Source of the DNA: an uncultured Kiloniellaceae bacterium
Lineage (GTDB): Bacteria > Pseudomonadota > Alphaproteobacteria > Kiloniellales > Kiloniellaceae
Length of the DNA: 64,000 nt
Assembly: GCA_947500035.1 (NCBI GenBank)
Contig: CANMQP010000004.1
Span: 158,071 to 222,070 of the forward strand
Direction: 5' to 3'
Under the pieces are notes generated by a model. That model had not been told where the DNA came from and searched no databases. It worked only from the letters and a program-made list of their open reading frames with translations. The position numbers and the translations under genes were made by a program. Shown one piece after another: positions 20,964-34,035 of this stretch. Numbering within the stretch: position 1 is the first letter of the stretch; each line of letters opens with the position of its first letter.

Positions 20964-22685
20964 ATGACCCAGGGTTCCGAAAACACAACAGCAACCGACT
21001 TCAACTATCAGCCCTCACCGGATCAGTCCGCCGCGACGCCGGTGCGCCATCCGGTGGTGATCATCGGCGCGGGGCCGGTGGGGCTGGCTGCCGCGCTCGA
21101 CCTCGCGCAGCGTGGCCGCAAGGTGGTGGTGCTGGACGACGACAACACGGTCAGTACCGGGTCGCGCGCGATCTGCTGGGCGAAGCGGTCGCTGGAGATC
21201 ATGGACCGGCTGGGCGTCGGGGATGCGCTGGTGGAAAAGGGCGTGACCTGGAAAAAGGGCAAGGTCTTCTTCGGTGAGGAACAGCTCTATGCCTTCGACC
21301 TGCTGCCGGAAGAAGGCCACCGCATGCCCGCCTTCATCAATCTGCAGCAGTACCACTTCGAAGCCTTCACCGTCCGCGAAGTCCTGAAGCATCCCGAGAT
21401 CGACCTGCGCTGGAACAACCGACTCGTCGGTGTCGACAACAAAAAAGATGGCGTCACACTCACCCTGGAGACCCCGGACGGCGAATACCGTCTGACCGCC
21501 GACTACATGCTGGCCGCCGACGGCGCGCGCAGCACCACCCGCCGCCTGCTGGGCCTGGACTTCAAGGGCCAGGTCTTCAAGGACCGCTTCCTGATCGCCG
21601 ACGTGATCATGAAGGCCGACTTCCCGACCGAGCGCTGGTTCTGGTTCGACCCGCCCTTCAACAAGGGCCAGTCCGCCCTGCTGCACAAACAGCCCGACGA
21701 CGTCTGGCGCATCGACCTGCAGCTCGGCTGGGACGCCGACCCGGAGGAAGAACGCAAACCCGAAAAGGTCATCCCGCGCCTGAAGGCCATGCTGGGCGAC
21801 GAAGTGGAGTTCGAGCTGGAGTGGGTCAGCGTCTACACCTTCCAGTGCCGCCGCCTGGAGCAGTTCCGCCACGGCCGCATCTTCTTCATCGGCGATTCCG
21901 CCCACCAGGTCTCCCCCTTCGGCGCCCGCGGCGCCAACAGCGGCCTGCAGGACATCGATAACCTGGCGTGGAAACTGGATCTGGTGCTGGAGGGAAAAGC
22001 CCCCGAAAGCCTGCTCGAAAGCTACCACGAAGAACGCGCCACCGCCGCCGACGAAAACATCCTGAACTCCACTCGCAGCACCGATTTCATCACCCCCAAG
22101 AGCGACGCCAGCCGCGCGTTTCGGGATGCTGTCCTGGATCTGGCGCAGGATCATGATTTCGCGCGGCGGCTGGTGAACAGCGGGCGGCTGTCTTTGCCCT
22201 CGACCTACAGCGAGTCCGCCCTGAACTCCCCCGACAGCCCGGGCTTCATCGGCCAGATGGTCCCGGGCGCGCCCTGCGCCGACGCGCCGGTGACCACGGC
22301 GGAGGGCCAGGAAAGCTGGCTGCTGCACCACCTGGGCGGCGACTTTGTTGGCCTCTACTTCGCCCGCAGCGACGAAACGGCAGAAAGCCTCGCCCAGCTG
22401 CGCGAGAGCCTCGCGGCGCTGGAGGTGCCGGTGCGGTTGGTGTCCATCTTCCCGCCCGGCAGCGATGCCCCGGCGGGTGCCCTGATCGACAGTGCGCAAC
22501 TGATGGCCGAAGCCCGCTACGACGCCCGCCCCGGCAGCTTCTATCTCATCCGCCCCGACCAGCACGTCACCGCCCGCTGGCGCGAAGCCGACCCGCAGGC
22601 GATTAGGGGGGCGTTGCATCGGGCATTGGGGAGAGGTCTGGCGGCTGTGGACACCGAGACGAAAAAGGAAGGAACCGCCGCATGA
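20964..22685 (+). CDS. FAD-dependent aromatic-ring monooxygenase (PheA/TfdB/MhpA family, with C-terminal thioredoxin-like domain)
   Basis: GxGxxG FAD fold (VVIIGAGPVGLAAALDLAQRG), a DG motif (ADGARS), and GDSAHQVSPFGARGANSGLQD. 573 aa. Confidence 0.85.
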   Translation: MTQGSENTTATDFNYQPSPDQSAATPVRHPVVIIGAGPVGLAAALDLAQRGRKVVVLDDDNTVSTGSRAICWAKRSLEIMDRLGVGDALVEKGVTWKKGKVFFGEEQLYAFDLLPEEGHRMPAFINLQQYHFEAFTVREVLKHPEIDLRWNNRLVGVDNKKDGVTLTLETPDGEYRLTADYMLAADGARSTTRRLLGLDFKGQVFKDRFLIADVIMKADFPTERWFWFDPPFNKGQSALLHKQPDDVWRIDLQLGWDADPEEERKPEKVIPRLKAMLGDEVEFELEWVSVYTFQCRRLEQFRHGRIFFIGDSAHQVSPFGARGANSGLQDIDNLAWKLDLVLEGKAPESLLESYHEERATAADENILNSTRSTDFITPKSDASRAFRDAVLDLAQDHDFARRLVNSGRLSLPSTYSESALNSPDSPGFIGQMVPGAPCADAPVTTAEGQESWLLHHLGGDFVGLYFARSDETAESLAQLRESLAALEVPVRLVSIFPPGSDAPAGALIDSAQLMAEARYDARPGSFYLIRPDQHVTARWREADPQAIRGALHRALGRGLAAVDTETKKEGTAA

Positions 22686-22879
22686 GCACGCAATTGAAGA
22701 ACGACGCCCGCCTCGCCCGTCCGGACGACATCTATCAGGTCCTGATCGATGCGCATCGTGATTTATCGGCTGACCAGAGCCAAGCCTTTAACAGCCGATT
22801 GGTGCTGCTGCTGGCAAATCATATCGGGGATGACGGGGTAATTGTGGAAGCCGTCGAGGCGGCGGGGAAGGGTTTGTAA
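22682..22879 (+). CDS. DUF2783-like small protein (65 aa), coupled to the monooxygenase
   Basis: ATGA start/stop overlap with the upstream gene. The size and position are typical for this partner protein. Confidence 0.6.
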   Translation: MSTQLKNDARLARPDDIYQVLIDAHRDLSADQSQAFNSRLVLLLANHIGDDGVIVEAVEAAGKGL

Positions 22880-23190
22880 GGGATAAAGGAAGACTGATTC
22901 GGGGGAACACGTCCCCCCCGCGCCCCCTTAAACTATCTGTAACATATCAACGCACAGCAAATTATGACTTAACCCCAGTCACTTCTTGGGGTTTTACTCC
23001 AACCGCAGGAATTAATTTTGTTCAGCACATTGCCGAACCAATCTACACAGATCGTAGCGTAGCACTGCACAATTTTCGCCATATGAATATGCGTTTTCAT
23101 TTACGCAACTTTGCGTGATAATAACAATCATAGCACCACCCAAGGGATGTACCCTCGATTGCGAGCGCTTGCTCCGAAAAAGGCGTCTGA

Positions 23191-23910
23191 ATGGCAAAAT
23201 ACAGCGGACCGGATGACTACTCTTGGCTTCCTGACAACCCTGAGCTTGGATTTGCGCACCTCCAAAGACAGAGATACGAAAAGCTCCGGGACTACTCGAC
23301 CCGCACAGTAGCCGATAGTAGCTACGACGCTCGCAGTTACGTCAATGAACTGATTGCCTATGACGAAGAACATCAATTAGGCATCTTGCCAGAATCGAAT
23401 TCAATTCCCTATGACGAACAGGGTTTTGAAGAGTTTTTCGACTTCTTTCGCAGCGCCGCAGAAATGGCGGCTACTAAGTTCTTACTTCGAGAGGCTCGGC
23501 GAAAGAATATAGATGCAGGAAATACTGTCCTACTTGATGCGTCTGCTCGGCTTGCCATTCGCAAGTTTATAGACGCCATAAAAACCAAACTTGACGAATT
23601 AGATATACCAGCCAGCAAGCGGGAGGCTTTGTTTAACAGACTCAATGCTTTCTTGTCAGAAGTAGATCGTGACCGAACGCAATTAGAGGCATGGTATGCG
23701 TTTGCCGTTGAAAGCGCACGCGCCGCCAAAGAAGCAGGCACCGAGTTCGCTTCGATCCAAAAAATAATAGATCGCATTTGCGACACTGTTGATAAGGCCG
23801 AACGAATTGTAGATCGTCTCACTTCTCCACAAAAGCGGTCACAGATTGAAGCCCCACCCAAACGGATCACAAACCAAGAATCTGATTTAGATGACGAGCT
23901 TCCCTTCTAA
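23191..23910 (+). CDS. Hypothetical alpha-helical protein (first gene of the AT-rich island)
   Basis: A 239-aa ORF in low-GC DNA with no recognisable motif. It is 113 bp upstream of the ATPase gene on the same strand. Confidence 0.5.
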   Translation: MAKYSGPDDYSWLPDNPELGFAHLQRQRYEKLRDYSTRTVADSSYDARSYVNELIAYDEEHQLGILPESNSIPYDEQGFEEFFDFFRSAAEMAATKFLLREARRKNIDAGNTVLLDASARLAIRKFIDAIKTKLDELDIPASKREALFNRLNAFLSEVDRDRTQLEAWYAFAVESARAAKEAGTEFASIQKIIDRICDTVDKAERIVDRLTSPQKRSQIEAPPKRITNQESDLDDELPF

Positions 23911-24023
23911 TGTGAGCGAGAAATCGGCGAGTGAATAAATGTCATAGCTATTTTGTCATGCAAAGGTACCACCGCTGAATATGGTTTCTAAAACCAAGTG
24001 ATTATTGTGAACATCTACCGAGG

Positions 24024-25574
24024 ATGCATTTCTTGTTGTTCAATATAATAAATCGAGCGGCAATCGTACCGAGTTCCGGCAAAAACCAAGTCTACCTCAA
24101 GATAGATCGTTGGAATGACTACTCCTTTGTCACAATGTTTTATGCTTCTGTTTTCGACGAAAATGGCAAATTTCACGAACTGGGGAATGTCAAAATTGGA
24201 TTTGTGGGCCAGACAAAAGAAGAAGAAACTCATTCGAAGCTAGAACCCCAGTTCGAGAATCTATCCGATATCTACTTTTCCCTTGGAACGGATACAGGAT
24301 ATTACAAGAAACTAGGCAATGAAATGTCGAGAGACTTCGCTGAACAATACTTGAATGCTCTCAATGACATAGTACATGATTCAAGAAATCTGGAGCGGGC
24401 CTCGGGTCAAAATGTATTGAAAACATCCCTCTTGAGAGATGTGAGCATATCCACAATTGAGGGGCAATACAGCAGAGTGCTTAGTGGAGGCGTCCCACTA
24501 ACAAATTTCAACTTCACATTCAAACATCCTCAAGAAGAAAATTTTGCTGAAATTGATCTTCGTTTCGATGTGGAGGCAAGCTCCAAACCTAGCACGAACA
24601 TTCATGCAATTATTGGAAGGAATGGCGCTGGAAAAACGACATTACTTAATCGAATGATTGAAGCTATTACAAATCCCAACGAATCGAAGGGAAATTTTTA
24701 TAGACAGAATACGATTCTTGGACCTCAAAGCATTGGGCCAAACTATTTCAGTAATCTCGTATCAATTTCGTTCAGCGCGTTCGATCCTTTTAGCCCGCCC
24801 GTTGAACAAAACGATCCAGAGATTGGAACATGCTACTACTACATAGGCTTAAAAGATTGCAGTGATGAATCTGGAACTCTACTTAAACCTCTAAGCGATT
24901 TACACGAAGAGTTCATAAAAGGCCTCAGCGAATGCTTTATCTCAACAGGCAAGCGCGAGCGATGGCTTGCTGCAATATCAACGCTAGAGTCTGATGAGAA
25001 TTTTGCAGAAATGAGGCTCTCGGAGCTAAGTAATTTCTCTCGAAGACAGCTCAAAGAAAAAGCTCGTTTTCTTGTAAGAAGCATGAGTTCAGGGCATGCA
25101 ATAGTCCTTTTGACCATCACGAAATTAGTGGCCAAAGTTGAAGAAAAAACACTGGTATTGCTAGACGAGCCAGAGAGTCACCTCCACCCACCACTACTTT
25201 CTGCGCTGACGCGCGCTCTGAGTGAACTTTTGTTCAATCGAAATGGCGTAGCCATTATTGCAACACACTCACCAGTTGTTCTGCAAGAACTACCAAAGTC
25301 ATGCGTCTGGAAAATCACAAGGTCTCGTCTTTCTCTCTCCTCGCAGCGCCCAGAAATTGAAACATTTGGCGAAAATGTCGGAACACTAACTCGCGAAGTT
25401 TTCGGCCTTGAAGTAGTGAAATCGGGTTATCACACCGTATTGGCAAAAGAAGTCCAACGTGGCCTCACTTATGATGAGATAGTAACAAACTTTGGTGAGC
25501 GATTAGGCTTTGAAGCTAAGGCCATACTAAGAGCGATGGTCACCGAACGTGACGCACGGGACCTCGACGCATGA
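24024..25574 (+). CDS. ABC/AAA_21-type ATPase with an extra N-terminal domain (PtuA-like; putative defence-system ATPase)
   Basis: Walker A (GRNGAGKTT, around residue 200) and Walker B (LVLLDEPESHLHP) are separated by an insert of about 180 aa. A candidate H-loop (ATHSP) is present. A domain of about 190 aa precedes the Walker A. Low GC. Confidence 0.78.
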   Translation: MHFLLFNIINRAAIVPSSGKNQVYLKIDRWNDYSFVTMFYASVFDENGKFHELGNVKIGFVGQTKEEETHSKLEPQFENLSDIYFSLGTDTGYYKKLGNEMSRDFAEQYLNALNDIVHDSRNLERASGQNVLKTSLLRDVSISTIEGQYSRVLSGGVPLTNFNFTFKHPQEENFAEIDLRFDVEASSKPSTNIHAIIGRNGAGKTTLLNRMIEAITNPNESKGNFYRQNTILGPQSIGPNYFSNLVSISFSAFDPFSPPVEQNDPEIGTCYYYIGLKDCSDESGTLLKPLSDLHEEFIKGLSECFISTGKRERWLAAISTLESDENFAEMRLSELSNFSRRQLKEKARFLVRSMSSGHAIVLLTITKLVAKVEEKTLVLLDEPESHLHPPLLSALTRALSELLFNRNGVAIIATHSPVVLQELPKSCVWKITRSRLSLSSQRPEIETFGENVGTLTREVFGLEVVKSGYHTVLAKEVQRGLTYDEIVTNFGERLGFEAKAILRAMVTERDARDLDA

Positions 25575-26425
25575 AGCAATTGCCCCTACCTGCATTCGAC
25601 CCGATTGAAGTCTTCTTGGAGTGTGTTGCTGACGTCAAAGATGAGACTCTACAAAATCGGTACATTGAAAACCAAGGTCATATTGAAGAAGCGATAGCAG
25701 TTTTCACCACTGAGGCCGCAAACCATACTTTGTGCAAGCTGCCTAGAGTACCACGTGGTCAAAACAATCGCATCGTAGCAGGTACCTTATCTAAAAACGA
25801 TCTCACTAAGCTATATTCGAAATACATGGTCGGCTCTACAGGTTCGGCTAGAACGATCTATGACGACATCTTTGTCACTGCCAATGGGAAATGTCCTTTT
25901 TGTGGTGGTATCGGCCATGTAAAGACACTTGACCACTATCTGCCAAAGGCCAATTTCCCACTTTACTCAGTCTTACCTGCAAACCTTGTGCCCTGTTGTC
26001 GTGATTGCAACACTGGCTTAGGCGCCACGTTTGCAACTGCTCCCGAGGAACAGACGATTCATCCGTATTTTGACGAAGATCACTTCTTCTCTGAACGATG
26101 GGTTGTAGCAACCATTATGCAAACAGACCCGGTCACTGCGCAATTTAAAGCAGAACCTCCAGTTGGATGGGACCAGATAGATAAGCAAAGAGCAGAAAGC
26201 CATTTTCAAGAGTACGACTTGCCAGCCAGATTCAGTGTTGAGGCCGCAGCCGAAATAGCGATGCTGACTGATCTTAGGCGAACAGCTCTGAGAGACATGC
26301 CAGCTGATACATTTAGCAATATCCTACGAGGCAATGCCAACAGTGGGACACTTCCAATAAATGGCTGGAAAAGAACGACGTATTCGGCGCTAGCCGATGT
26401 TCATTGGTTTTGCGCCGAAATCTAA
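25571..26425 (+). CDS. HNH endonuclease (PtuB-like)
   Basis: CPFCGG ... HVKTLDHYLPKA ... NLVPCCRDCN is a Cys4 zinc finger around an HNH catalytic core. It overlaps the ATPase gene by 4 nt (ATGA), so the two are probably translationally coupled. Confidence 0.75.
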   Translation: MKQLPLPAFDPIEVFLECVADVKDETLQNRYIENQGHIEEAIAVFTTEAANHTLCKLPRVPRGQNNRIVAGTLSKNDLTKLYSKYMVGSTGSARTIYDDIFVTANGKCPFCGGIGHVKTLDHYLPKANFPLYSVLPANLVPCCRDCNTGLGATFATAPEEQTIHPYFDEDHFFSERWVVATIMQTDPVTAQFKAEPPVGWDQIDKQRAESHFQEYDLPARFSVEAAAEIAMLTDLRRTALRDMPADTFSNILRGNANSGTLPINGWKRTTYSALADVHWFCAEI

Positions 26426-26565
26426 TTATTGTGGTCATGTGATCGGGGTCAGTTTGAGCTCTCTTCCCTTTTCGAAGAAGCAAAATCGCTCCGGCACCAA
26501 AGCGGGAGGGGGCTGCATAACCAGCATAGCTAACGGCACCACCCATCAGTTAACCTCCCCCGCCT

Positions 26566-27447
26566 ATGCAGAACCTTTCCGACAATGTCCGCGGCGCGCT
26601 CTTCATGTCCATTTCCATGGCGGGCTTTGCGCTGAACGACGCGACCATCAAGCTGATCTCGGGGGAACTGGGTTTCTATCAGATCATCTTCCTGCGCGGC
26701 ATCTTCGCGACGCTGCTGATCGGCCTGCTCGTGCGGCAGCGGGGCGCGCTTTTCTATCTGCCGTCCCGCCGCGACGCCGGGATCATGGCGGTGCGGGCGG
26801 CGGCGGAGGTCGGCGGCACGCTCTGTTTCCTGACCGCGCTCTTCAACATGCCGATCGCCAATGCCACGGCCATCCTGCAGGCCCTGCCCCTGGCCGTTAC
26901 CCTGGCCGCCGCGCTTTTCATGGGCGAAAAGGTCGGCTGGCGGCGCTATACGGCGATCGCGGTGGGCTTTACCGGCGTGCTGATCATCGTGCGCCCGGGT
27001 GGTGAGGGTTTCAACGCCTATGCGCTCTGGGCCGTGGCGGCGGTCGGCTTCATCGTGCTGCGGGACCTCACGACCCGGCGCCTTTCGGCGGGCATTCCCT
27101 CGGCCTATGTCGCGCTCAGTTCCTCCCTCGTCCTCACCGCGGTCGGCGGCCTGCTCGCCCTGACCGTGCCCTGGCCGCCGGTCAGCGCCAGCGCCCTGGC
27201 GATGCTGGCGGGTGCGGCGGGCTTCCTCTTCTTCGGCTACCTCTTTGCCGTGATGACCATGCGGGTGGGCGAGGTCAGCTTCGTCTCTCCCTTCCGCTAC
27301 TCCGTGCTGATCTGGGCGATCCTGCTGGGCCTGCTGCTGTTCGGCGAGGTGCCCGACGGCTGGACCCTCTTCGGCAGCCTCGTCGTCGTCGGCATGGGGA
27401 TCTATAGCTTCTACCGCGAGCGGCGGGTGAAGGAAGAGAGTTCGTAA
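26566..27447 (+). CDS. EamA/DMT-family transporter
   Basis: A 10-TM protein with duplicated EamA domains. Confidence 0.8.
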   Translation: MQNLSDNVRGALFMSISMAGFALNDATIKLISGELGFYQIIFLRGIFATLLIGLLVRQRGALFYLPSRRDAGIMAVRAAAEVGGTLCFLTALFNMPIANATAILQALPLAVTLAAALFMGEKVGWRRYTAIAVGFTGVLIIVRPGGEGFNAYALWAVAAVGFIVLRDLTTRRLSAGIPSAYVALSSSLVLTAVGGLLALTVPWPPVSASALAMLAGAAGFLFFGYLFAVMTMRVGEVSFVSPFRYSVLIWAILLGLLLFGEVPDGWTLFGSLVVVGMGIYSFYRERRVKEESS

Positions 27448-33888: not shown

Positions 33889-33964
33889 GCCAGACTAGCT
33901 CAGATGGTGAGAGCGCCGGACATTAATCCGGAGGTCGCGGGTTCGATTCCCGTGTTTGGCACCA
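33889..33964 (+). tRNA. tRNA gene with an atypical 6-nt anticodon loop (cattaa); isotype unresolved
   Basis: The acceptor stem (gccagac / gtttggc), D arm (gctc-agatggtga-gagc), T arm (gcggg-ttcgatt-cccgt) and CCA end are all well formed. The anticodon stem ccgga / tccgg encloses only 6 nt. Confidence 0.6.
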
Positions 33965-34035
33965 CGATGTAGCTCATTTGGTAGAGCACTAGACTGTGAA
34001 TCTAGGGGTAAAGGGTTCAACTCCCTTCATCACTC
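33963..34035 (+). tRNA. tRNA-His (GTG)-like, possibly 5'-degenerate or a pseudogene
   Basis: The D arm, the anticodon arm (ctaga-ctGTGaa-tctag) and the T arm (aaggg-ttcaact-ccctt) are good. Only 4 of 7 acceptor pairs form, and the 5' three nucleotides overlap the CCA of the upstream tRNA. Confidence 0.5.

Follow-up and report, generated by a model that had tools for sequence, protein, structure and literature searches.

Among the described relatives of the locus are the Septu systems, two-gene operons that encode an ATPase of the ABC/AAA_15/AAA_21 type (PtuA) and an HNH nuclease (PtuB). Septu function depends on the Walker motifs as well as on an HNH motif (PMC13096335). The two proteins form a 6:2 PtuA:PtuB assembly that is inhibited by ATP, and the reported activities are DNA nicking, ssDNA cleavage or tRNA-Tyr cleavage (PMC12640716, PMC12819146). 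In the PADLOC nomenclature, PDC-M01 is a candidate system that comprises the very gene pairs named Septu by DefenseFinder (PMC11811056 and its supplement). An ABC-type ATPase gene followed by an HNH nuclease gene is found in E. coli Septu (8EEA/8EE4), Septu Ec-B88, Retron-Eco7/Ec78 and Retron-Eco4/Ec83, as well as at the locus described here.

A second relative is the gene pair ea59-ea31 from the non-essential b region of bacteriophage lambda. Both proteins are made early in the lytic cycle, and we take the purified ssDNA-dependent endonuclease of lambda to be made up of Ea31 and Ea59. The existence of such a lambda-encoded endonuclease is mentioned in a passage of PMC5241400 that cites Benchimol et al. 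1982, and ea59 is labelled 'ATP-dependent endonuclease' in the gene table of PMC10695390. In the searchable literature, no paper was found that mentions Ea59 and Septu together or that demonstrates anti-phage activity for any member of the Ea59/Ea31 branch.

Genomic island and flanking genes

The window, a stretch of 64,000 nucleotides from an uncultured Kiloniellaceae bacterium, contains a two-gene operon of this kind within a segment of low GC content.

22682-22879, DUF2783 gene of the left flank
22926..26565, no strand, AT-rich foreign-DNA island of 3.6 kb, with the DUF2783 operon on its left and the EamA transporter gene on its right
26566-27447, EamA/DMT transporter gene of the right flank

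The GC content falls to 0.40-0.49 across approximately 22800-26400 compared to 0.60-0.71 in the flanks. Likewise, GC3 is 0.45, 0.40 and 0.43 in the genes encoding the 239-aa protein, the ATPase and the HNH nuclease, respectively, and 0.86-0.90 in the flanking FAD monooxygenase, EamA and LysR genes. Both drops bear out the AT-rich island between the DUF2783 and DMT transporter genes that the initial annotation had described. The three same-strand genes listed there also correspond to open reading frames, namely 23191-23910, 24024-25574 and 25571-26425 (239, 516 and 284 aa).

The left border is defined by three independent relatives (~87% nucleotide identity), in which the homology to the window ends at 22925-22927. 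Downstream of DUF2783, three close relatives each carry different cargo, none of it with a PADLOC match, and no empty site was found among the close relatives examined. The right border was therefore placed solely on the basis of increasing GC beyond the stop codon of the HNH gene (26425). The ATPase-HNH module sits on horizontally acquired DNA.

No tRNA is located near the island, and no meaningful direct repeats were detected at its borders, as had been noted before. The island has no Rfam match, and neither a reverse transcriptase nor an ncRNA accompanies the gene pair. Resolvase-like sequences are absent from the whole window. Promoter and terminator scans of the island returned counts equal to the background level of shuffled controls. 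Across relatives, the position adjacent to DUF2783 is a variable spot. The pair stands alone in the window, with no phage or plasmid genes close by.

The ATPase and HNH nuclease genes

The features of the gene pair are as follows.

24024..25574, plus strand, Ea59-like ABC-type ATPase (PtuA-class) of 516 aa, assigned by PADLOC, BLASTP, AlphaFold and structure matches
24024..24488, plus strand, family-wide N-terminal domain of the ATPase (residues 1-155), in which beta strands precede helices
24615..24641, plus strand, Walker A motif GRNGAGKTT (residues 198-206, K204), read from the sequence
25083..25274, plus strand, ABC signature-like MSSGH (354-358), Walker B LVLLDEPE (377-384; D381, E382) and H-loop ATHSP (413-417)
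25571..25574, plus strand, ATGA stop/start overlap of 4 nt between the ATPase and HNH genes, indicative of translational coupling
25571..26425, plus strand, Ea31-like HNH nuclease (PtuB-class) of 284 aa, assigned by PADLOC, BLASTP and PHROG
25892..26068, plus strand, HNH catalytic core C108xxC111, D121-H122, N138, C143xxC146-N147, H164

BLASTP shows homology of the two proteins to lambda Ea59 and Ea31 from end to end. The ATPase shares 50% identity with Ea59 over 525 aa (E 2e-177, residues 4-510 aligned), a likeness that takes in the N-terminal domain, and the HNH protein is 34% identical to Ea31 across its whole length (E 3e-58, alignment of residues 1-276). The gene order and the 4-nt overlap (lambda 25396-25399) are the same as well. 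In lambda, the pair is followed downstream by ea47, whereas the window pair is located on a stand-alone chromosomal island of a GC-rich bacterium without phage genes.

The same assignment is obtained with profile collections. The best PADLOC model for the ATPase is PDC-M01A PDLC04235 (E 8e-211, residues 6-511 of 516), and the PtuA1 model PDLC00282 is matched over the full length (E 4e-197). The HNH protein matches PDC-M01B PDLC04256 over its full length (E 1e-104), and the best 25 PADLOC matches listed for it are all PDC-M01B models. Lambda Ea59 and Ea31 have the same top PADLOC models as the window pair (PDC-M01A/B and PtuA1 PDLC00282). The family is also modelled in PHROGs as phrog_8066 and phrog_10378, the latter of which ('HNH endonuclease') matches the HNH protein at 6.5e-74. 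No architectural difference was found between the window pair and the families described by PDC-M01, PDLC00282 and the two PHROGs. The pair is a new, diverged member of a known and catalogued Septu-class family, with at most 66-69% identity between the window proteins and any known relative.

These matches bear on the initial annotation, in which the locus was read as a Septu-like but non-canonical cassette. A Septu-like ATPase-HNH pair on acquired DNA is indeed present. The suggestion that the cassette might be a variant or system not described before had to be abandoned, since PADLOC and PHROGs already catalogue the Ea59/Ea31 family as a branch of Septu. What appeared to be a new defence system is clarified as a member of a very large family (its ATPases fall into at least 7,400 clusters) with lambda ea59-ea31 as its textbook representative.

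The motifs described earlier were recovered in both proteins. Walker A lies near residue 200 of the ATPase and Walker B follows after a long insert; the CxxC...H...CxxC pattern of the nuclease is read as CPFC (108-111), DH (121-122) and CRDCN (143-147), and the 4-nt gene overlap is present. Residues G198, N200, G203 and K204 of Walker A are unchanged across 43 ATPase homologues, and the residues of MSSGH, Walker B and the H-loop are invariant throughout the family. In the nuclease, C108, C111, D121, H122, N138, C143, C146, N147 and H164 are invariant in all 43 HNH homologues. As read from these alignments, the pair has kept every residue for ATP binding, ATP hydrolysis and HNH catalysis.

The two genes are also linked elsewhere. 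In 77 of 80 related loci the HNH gene is located directly downstream of the ATPase gene, and the other three loci end at contig ends. Where both ORFs were called (76 related loci), the two genes mostly overlap by 4 nt or 1 nt. The related loci span many phyla in addition to phages and plasmids. No further conserved neighbor was found in the 80 loci besides the HNH gene. Among the genes directly beside the pair elsewhere are those for type I restriction, AbiEii and MADS, as well as integrase genes.

An assignment of the ATPase to ordinary ABC transporters or to housekeeping proteins of the RecF/SbcC type, which the initial annotation had named as grounds for dropping its reading, has practically no probability. 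The generic ABC_tran domain is the one exception among transporter and housekeeping models, which otherwise score far below their cut-offs (CcmA 31 bits vs 131.6). Pfam AAA_21 (2.3e-17) and AAA_15 (3.4e-9) are matched above cut-off, and over its full length the ATPase matches only PDC-M01A/PtuA1 models and Ea59. It has no permease partner; its obligate partner is the HNH nuclease, and both genes are located on foreign DNA.

Comparison with solved structures and other ATPase systems

The AlphaFold model of the ATPase has a pLDDT of 87. When it was used as a Foldseek query, the top ~40 matches were all PtuA chains, including those of E. coli Septu (8EEA, 8EE4, 8SUX). In a profile search of solved structures, retron and Septu PtuA came out on top (1.6e-9). 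According to the predicted model, the solved PtuA structures are the nearest structural relatives of the ATPase, through the ABC core only. For the nuclease, an HNH-family profile reaches E-values of 0.016-0.1 with solved PtuB chains, confined to the HNH core.

In the studied Septu and retron PtuAB proteins, as in the window pair, the ATPase carries a C-terminal helical extension and the nuclease ends in a helical domain. The cores alone align, with 10-19% identity and a TM score of about 0.3. In the window ATPase the lysine of Walker A is K204, compared to K43 in PtuA Ec-B88, the spacing from Walker A to Walker B is 177 and 273 residues, respectively, and the catalytic His/Asn pair is H122/N138 in the window nuclease compared to H75/N91 in Septu Ec-B88. 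In contrast to the studied PtuAB, the pair does not correspond to the NCBIfam models TIGR02646 and NF041760. TIGR02646 (PtuB family) has no match to the HNH protein at E ≤ 1, and NF041760 (PtuA of the retron Ec78 type) gives the ATPase 45 bits at a cut-off of 500.

A further difference is the N-terminal domain of about 155 residues in the window ATPase branch. It had been regarded as an extra domain, which holds in comparison with the studied E. coli and retron PtuA; within the Ea59 family it is the rule, as homologue alignments contain it family-wide. Structure comparison yielded no fold relative of this domain, and a domain profile searched against solved structures returned nothing credible (best match SarX, E 0.0095, 46 residues). 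An identity with GhoS, indicated by a weak Pfam match (E 0.009), was rejected because the order of strands and helices does not fit the prediction.

ATPases of the OLD family and PARIS (GajA, AriA, OLD) belong to the same ABC superfamily (AAA_15/AAA_21), and AriA and OLD appear as weaker matches. The window ATPase differs from them in that it lacks a TOPRIM domain and is partnered by an HNH protein instead of AriB or GajB. The scores are far below those for PDC-M01/PtuA.

Proposed mode of action

Taken as a whole, the locus probably harbors a coupled module of the Ea59/Ea31 family, a branch of the Septu class, that acts as a phage-triggered nuclease, with the 239-aa gene being separate. The individual steps are modelled on the Septu systems studied so far, which resemble the window pair in the catalytic cores only. 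The ABC-type ATPase would oligomerise and hold the HNH nuclease via its C-terminal helices, and the helices predicted at residues 452-515 of the model could be this nuclease-holding extension. Bound nucleotide would keep the nuclease quiet until a cue of phage infection frees its activity on DNA or tRNA. Release of the nuclease would stop phage replication at the expense of cell growth. The cue would probably be sensed via the family-specific N-terminal domain and could be single-stranded DNA, because the lambda endonuclease is reported to depend on it.

The pair might instead serve mobile elements, be it in competition between phages or elements during lytic growth, in DNA processing or as an addiction module, and be present here as a stranded remnant without benefit to the host. 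The location of the best-known member in the lambda b region points in this direction, as do the family's own PHROGs, its 24 phage and 83 plasmid records, and the position of the island at a spot that holds other cargo in three relatives. The early lytic expression of Ea59 and Ea31 is as compatible with a service to the phage as with host defence. However, no phage or plasmid genes are near the window pair, and both genes are intact with every family-invariant residue kept. Moreover, most of the 80 related loci are chromosomal with varied neighbors, some of them restriction or Abi genes. Competition between elements and host defence are not mutually exclusive roles, and on balance we regard the remnant explanation as unlikely.

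The link between Ea59 and Septu makes the role of the lambda b-region endonuclease, a long-standing puzzle, testable with Septu assays. Conversely, an enzyme with biochemistry dating from 1982 provides a handle on this Septu branch and its unexplained N-terminal domain.

The 239-aa protein and its SSB-like tail

The first gene of the island encodes a protein with the following features.

23191..23910, plus strand, helical protein of 239 aa, separate mobile-element family, assigned by HMMER relatives and a predicted model
23824..23907, plus strand, disordered C-terminal tail of this protein with the tip DDELPF (23890-23907), a look-alike of the SSB C-terminal tip

A word-indexed homology search returned only the protein itself, suggesting an orphan; this was overturned by an exhaustive HMMER search, which found 505 representative relatives at E ≤ 1e-3. 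No match was obtained in Pfam, PADLOC, NCBIfam or PHROGs. The predicted model is an all-helical bundle with a pLDDT of 90, in agreement with the helical protein proposed initially, and structure comparison gave generic helical-bundle matches only. Past residue 211 the confidence falls, and the proline-containing tail has no secondary structure.

The tail ends in an acidic tip. A terminus of the form [DEN][DE][DE][IVLM]PF is present in 87 of 132 full-length family members vs 0 of 835 background ORFs, and the ending [IVLM]PF does not occur in any of 239 control proteins. The usual tip in the family is DDEIPF or DDDIPF, the latter of which is the conserved SSB-Ct hexapeptide (PMC5872125). As in the 239-aa protein, the SSB-Ct is an acidic tip with I/L-P-F at the extreme C-terminus of a disordered tail. 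SSB itself has an OB fold, in contrast to the helical bundle of the 239-aa protein, which has no sequence similarity to SSB. The protein was therefore rejected as an SSB: the acidic tip is present, but an all-helical body takes the place of the OB-fold ssDNA-binding domain. A conserved SSB-tip look-alike on a non-SSB family is the most unusual feature of the island.

The 239-aa protein was considered as a possible third component, for example a regulator, sensor or antitoxin that links the nuclease to SSB-interacting proteins by its tail. All three genes share the strand and the AT-rich island, a promoter-like site is located upstream of the 239-aa gene, and no terminator is predicted ahead of the ATPase gene; the tail is SSB-like, and the lambda counterpart of the nuclease reportedly depends on ssDNA. 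The promoter and terminator counts, however, do not differ from shuffled controls, and relatives of the 239-aa protein are found in 0 of the 80 loci carrying the pair, both by tblastn and by the family profile HMM. Co-occurrence in other genomes, raised in the initial annotation, thus holds for the ATPase and HNH genes (77/80) and fails for the 239-aa gene (0/80). Conversely, genes resembling ea59 or ea31 are absent from all ~13 distinct contexts examined for the 239-aa family, and no 239-aa relative adjoins lambda ea59. A three-gene system is accordingly very improbable, and the earlier proposal of a third gene was dropped. Judged from these homology searches, the 239-aa gene is cargo in its own right and contributes no third subunit to the ATPase-HNH system.

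As a tentative and rather doubtful extension, the island may consist of two independent modules, with the 239-aa protein representing an undescribed mobile-element family composed of a helical bundle, a disordered linker and an SSB-tip mimic. By docking at the pockets that accept the SSB tip, the protein could recruit or block genome-maintenance enzymes of the host or phage. Such docking might aid replication or recombination of the element, or act as an anti-defence or defence decoy. In a bolder version, the protein could modulate the neighboring nuclease, given the reported ssDNA dependence of the lambda homologue. If the tip is functional, it would offer mobile elements a novel route into the SSB interaction hub. 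A motif-pattern search for the family found 13 short metagenomic loci, none of them viral. Typically, the family is found on plasmids, prophages and transposon-like regions, where a resolvase gene often adjoins; this frequent neighbor would fit a role of the 239-aa protein in element replication or recombination.

Gene content and borders of the island

The AT-rich island described in the initial annotation is borne out by gene calling and base composition. GC content is 0.40-0.49 from about 22800 to 26400, compared with 0.60-0.71 outside. GC3 is 0.45, 0.40 and 0.43 in the 239-aa, ATPase and HNH genes, respectively, versus 0.86-0.90 in the neighboring FAD monooxygenase, EamA and LysR genes. 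The three genes share one strand and are flanked by a DUF2783 gene and an EamA/DMT transporter gene, as originally reported. The motifs and the 4-nt overlap of the ATPase and HNH genes were likewise recovered where they had been placed.

Features of the island (window coordinates)
23191-23910, + strand: open reading frame of the 239-aa protein
23824-23907, + strand: tail of the 239-aa protein, with DDELPF at 23890-23907
24024-25574, + strand: open reading frame of the 516-aa ATPase
24024-24488, + strand: N-terminal domain of the ATPase (residues 1-155), beta strands followed by a helical region
ATPase residues 198-206: Walker A, GRNGAGKTT
ATPase residues 377-384: Walker B, LVLLDEPE
25571-25574, + strand: ATGA stop/start overlap of the ATPase and HNH genes
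25571-26425, + strand: open reading frame of the 284-aa HNH nuclease
HNH protein residues 108-111, 121-122 and 143-147: CPFC, DH and CRDCN

The island holds an intact, translationally coupled ABC-type ATPase and HNH nuclease on horizontally acquired DNA. In three independent relatives (L081, L083 and L084/L085), which share about 87% nucleotide identity with the operon upstream of the island, homology to the window ends at 22925-22927, directly past a GC-rich hairpin downstream of DUF2783. Beyond this break, each relative carries different genes of no known function, one of them encoding a pentapeptide-repeat protein, and PADLOC found no matches in the cargo of the three. Since three relatives share one break point and differ in cargo, the site behaves as a variable spot for foreign DNA and resembles a hotspot of uncharacterised cargo. 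The right border is defined only by the rise in GC after the HNH stop codon.

No meaningful flanking repeats were found at the island, in agreement with the initial annotation, nor were a nearby tRNA, an Rfam element or any trace of an insertion mechanism. Resolvase-like sequence is absent from the whole window. Elsewhere in the window, ARAGORN reports a 'tRNA-???' with a two-base anticodon at 33889-33964, which shares 2 nt with the beginning of a normal tRNA-His (33963-34035) and is probably a false call.

The ATPase and nuclease as members of the lambda Ea59/Ea31 family

Both proteins are matched end to end by PADLOC models of the candidate system PDC-M01, the ATPase by PDC-M01A (PDLC04235, E 8e-211) and the nuclease by PDC-M01B (PDLC04256, E 1e-104). 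The ATPase is also matched end to end by the PtuA1 model PDLC00282 (E 4e-197). Full-length PHROGs families exist for both, namely phrog_8066 (phage family, 1.6e-186) and phrog_10378 ('HNH endonuclease', 6.5e-74). In Pfam, AAA_21 and AAA_15 score above threshold in the ATPase, and the HNH match is weak.

A tblastn search of annotated phage genomes showed Ea59 of phage lambda to be about 50% identical to the ATPase over its whole length. Direct comparison gave 50% identity over 525 aa (E 2e-177), the N-terminal 190 residues included, and 34% identity over the full length between the nuclease and Ea31 (E 3e-58). In lambda (NC_001416.1), ea59 (25396-26973) and ea31 (24509-25399) lie in this order on one strand and overlap by 4 nt. 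The annotation of ea31 is HNH endonuclease, and the two genes together span 24509-26973 (3510-5974 of L091, the lambda locus). The lambda genes score as PDC-M01A/B and PtuA1 in PADLOC. Because the top PADLOC models are common to the lambda and window proteins, which are homologous, the window pair is, judged by sequence, a member of the Ea59/Ea31 family that PADLOC catalogues as PDC-M01. The cassette is Septu-like, as proposed, and foreign; the proposal of an undescribed variant or new system is not borne out. With at most 66-69% identity to the closest protein on record, the window cassette is a diverged family member.

Among 43-54 homologues, the window proteins included, there is no variation at the Walker A, signature-like, Walker B and H-loop residues of the ATPase, nor at the zinc-binding cysteines and catalytic D-H, N, N and H of the nuclease. 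With all these motif residues present, both enzymes look active.

The extra N-terminal domain noted initially is present and is absent from the studied E. coli layout, but it is not novel: these approximately 155 residues are kept throughout the Ea59 family and form a subfamily signature rather than a novelty of this locus. The AlphaFold model of the ATPase (mean pLDDT 87, pTM 0.84) places the domain with high confidence. A sequence-profile search of solved structures yielded no credible relative of it, and fold searches with the whole model gave alignments covering the ABC core only. The domain may be a sensor. We take the ssDNA-dependent endonuclease of lambda to be Ea31 together with Ea59. 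PMC5241400, citing Benchimol et al. 1982, names lambda as encoding such an enzyme, and PMC10695390 lists ea59 as an 'ATP-dependent endonuclease'. If the lambda enzyme is indeed Ea31 plus Ea59, the activating ligand may be ssDNA, and the sensor may be the family-specific N-terminal domain.

The public annotation of the ATPase starts at the ATG at 24024, which abuts a GAGG. Homologue alignments open at residues 4-6 of the annotated protein (24024-24038), and 9-12 nt past the GAGG there are TTG codons, at 24033 and 24036, either of which may be the true start in place of the ATG.

Conservation and mobility of the pair

The pairing of ATPase and nuclease in the initial annotation holds across genomes. 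Scanning one genome per species gave 80 loci with ATPase relatives at 39-63% identity, which span Alpha-, Beta- and Gammaproteobacteria, Actinobacteria, Firmicutes, Bacteroidetes, Cyanobacteria and others. An Ea31-like gene lies directly downstream on the same strand in 77 of them, and the remaining three are interrupted by contig ends. Most related loci have a 4-nt or 1-nt stop/start overlap. No other neighbor is conserved among the 80 loci; the next most common are integrases (8 loci) and type I restriction subunits (4-5 loci). When 127 immediate neighbors were searched with PADLOC, type I restriction enzymes, AbiEii and MADS genes were found at two or three loci each. The family occurs in 24 phage and 83 plasmid records, and at least 7,400 clusters of ATPase relatives are present in the protein database, all under the generic name 'AAA family ATPase'. 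The two genes form a conserved unit that is mobile.

Three PLSDB 'plasmids' of 48,499-48,502 bp from Stenotrophomonas, Paenibacillus and Salmonella (NZ_CP104294.1, NZ_CP068597.1 and NZ_CP082339.1) and one 'Campylobacter phage' record of 48,361 bp (MW057783.1) also carry an Ea59 gene. Its identity to the query equals that of lambda and the record lengths match the lambda genome; these four records resemble lambda DNA that was entered as host replicons, sequencing control DNA being one possible source.

Relation to Septu

Septu consists of PtuA, an ABC-type ATPase, and PtuB, an HNH nuclease; retron-linked versions are known as Septu type II (PMC8565338; PMC12640716). Pairs called PDC-M01 by PADLOC are Septu in DefenseFinder, e.g. 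EOO12777.1/EOO12778.1 of B. cereus HuA3-9 (PMC11811056 and its supplement). In a Foldseek search with the ATPase model, the best approximately 40 matches are all PtuA chains, among them E. coli Septu (8EEA, 8EE4, 8SUX) and the retron Eco7, Ec78 and Ec83 complexes. PtuA also ranks first when the family profile is compared with solved structures (E 1.6e-9). The predicted structure thus supports kinship of the window ATPase to PtuA. This kinship to the studied Septu systems is remote and limited to the catalytic cores: the ATPase reaches 45 bits with the NCBIfam PtuA model, whose cut-off is 500, TIGR02646, the model for the PtuB family, does not match the nuclease, and the nuclease-family profile reaches solved PtuB chains with E 0.016-0.1 only.

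In lambda, the classic endonuclease genes of the b region appear to form a module of the Septu class, and papers naming Ea59 and Septu together are absent from the searchable literature. The family of the pair is already known; this link is worth noting, as is a mobile-element family with a look-alike of the SSB tip beside the pair.

Residue positions also set the architecture of the studied E. coli system apart: PtuA has Walker A K43 and Walker B D316, and PtuB has catalytic H75 and N91 (PMC13096335), against K204, D381, H122 and N138 in the window proteins. Septu systems that have been studied form a 6:2 complex of PtuA and PtuB whose nuclease is inhibited by ATP, with plasmid DNA (nicked), ssDNA and tRNA-Tyr reported as substrates (PMC12640716; PMC12819146; PMC13096335).

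By analogy with Septu, the ATPase would oligomerise and hold the nuclease through its C-terminal helices, modelled at residues 452-515, with nucleotide binding restraining the nuclease. An infection cue would free nuclease activity on DNA or tRNA, which would halt phage replication to the detriment of the cell. In the main alternative, the module would work for its carrier mobile elements, for instance in competition between phages during lytic growth. The lambda Ea proteins are early lytic products. Such a role and host defence are not mutually exclusive.

The 239-aa protein

The 239-aa protein has no match in Pfam, PADLOC, NCBIfam, PHROGs or PDB. A word-indexed search returned only the protein itself, as if it were an orphan; exhaustive HMMER searching overturned this with 505 representative relatives, 200 of them at E <= 1e-10, in full-length alignments of about 240 aa. 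The word-indexed search had missed hundreds of relatives at 25-44% identity, and 'orphan' calls from such fast searches are unreliable for fast-evolving families.

No relative of the protein was found in the 80 pair-bearing loci, either by tblastn or with the family profile HMM, and none of the approximately 13 distinct contexts of the 239-aa family contains the ATPase-HNH pair. The gene is not a third subunit of the system, as had been considered possible. The cassette is neither undescribed nor three-gene, and the initial interpretation is partly supported overall.

Contexts of the family comprise a region with many transposase and toxin-antitoxin genes, a defence island (MmeI-type enzyme, helicase, Fic), a Methylorubrum prophage, a Methylosinus plasmid and short metagenomic contigs. 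In four independent lineages, a small serine recombinase (resolvase) gene directly adjoins the family gene, at times overlapping or nearly abutting it:

L086, 7610-8732: resolvase-adjacent site
L097, 926-2199: resolvase-adjacent site
L098, 679-2054: resolvase-adjacent site (also L093 and L103)
L090, 7998-9363: resolvase-adjacent site

This adjacency suggests that the family travels as cargo of, or acts as a partner to, mobile elements with a resolvase.

The window protein ends in DDELPF. Among 132 full-length family members, 87 end in [DEN][DE][DE][IVLM]PF, most commonly DDEIPF or DDDIPF, and 99 in [IVLM]PF. The [IVLM]PF ending does not occur in any of 239 control proteins, nor does the full acidic motif close any of 835 background ORFs. 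SSB binds its partner proteins through a conserved hexapeptide at its C-terminus, DDDIPF (PMC5872125). AlphaFold (pLDDT 90) predicts a helical bundle for residues 17-211 and an unstructured tail for residues 212-239, and a fold search with this model found generic helical bundles only. The protein resembles SSB in its layout of body, flexible linker and acidic tip but differs in having no OB fold; given its helical-bundle body, it is not an SSB. Literature searches found no described natural protein of this type, although such proteins could still exist.

On the Methylosinus sp. C49 plasmid pMSC49d, the divergent neighbor of the family gene encodes a 253-aa HTH_3 regulator (L090, 6986-7747, - strand) that also ends in ...GIDDDIPF, so that a second, unrelated protein of the same plasmid has a C-terminus like the SSB tip.
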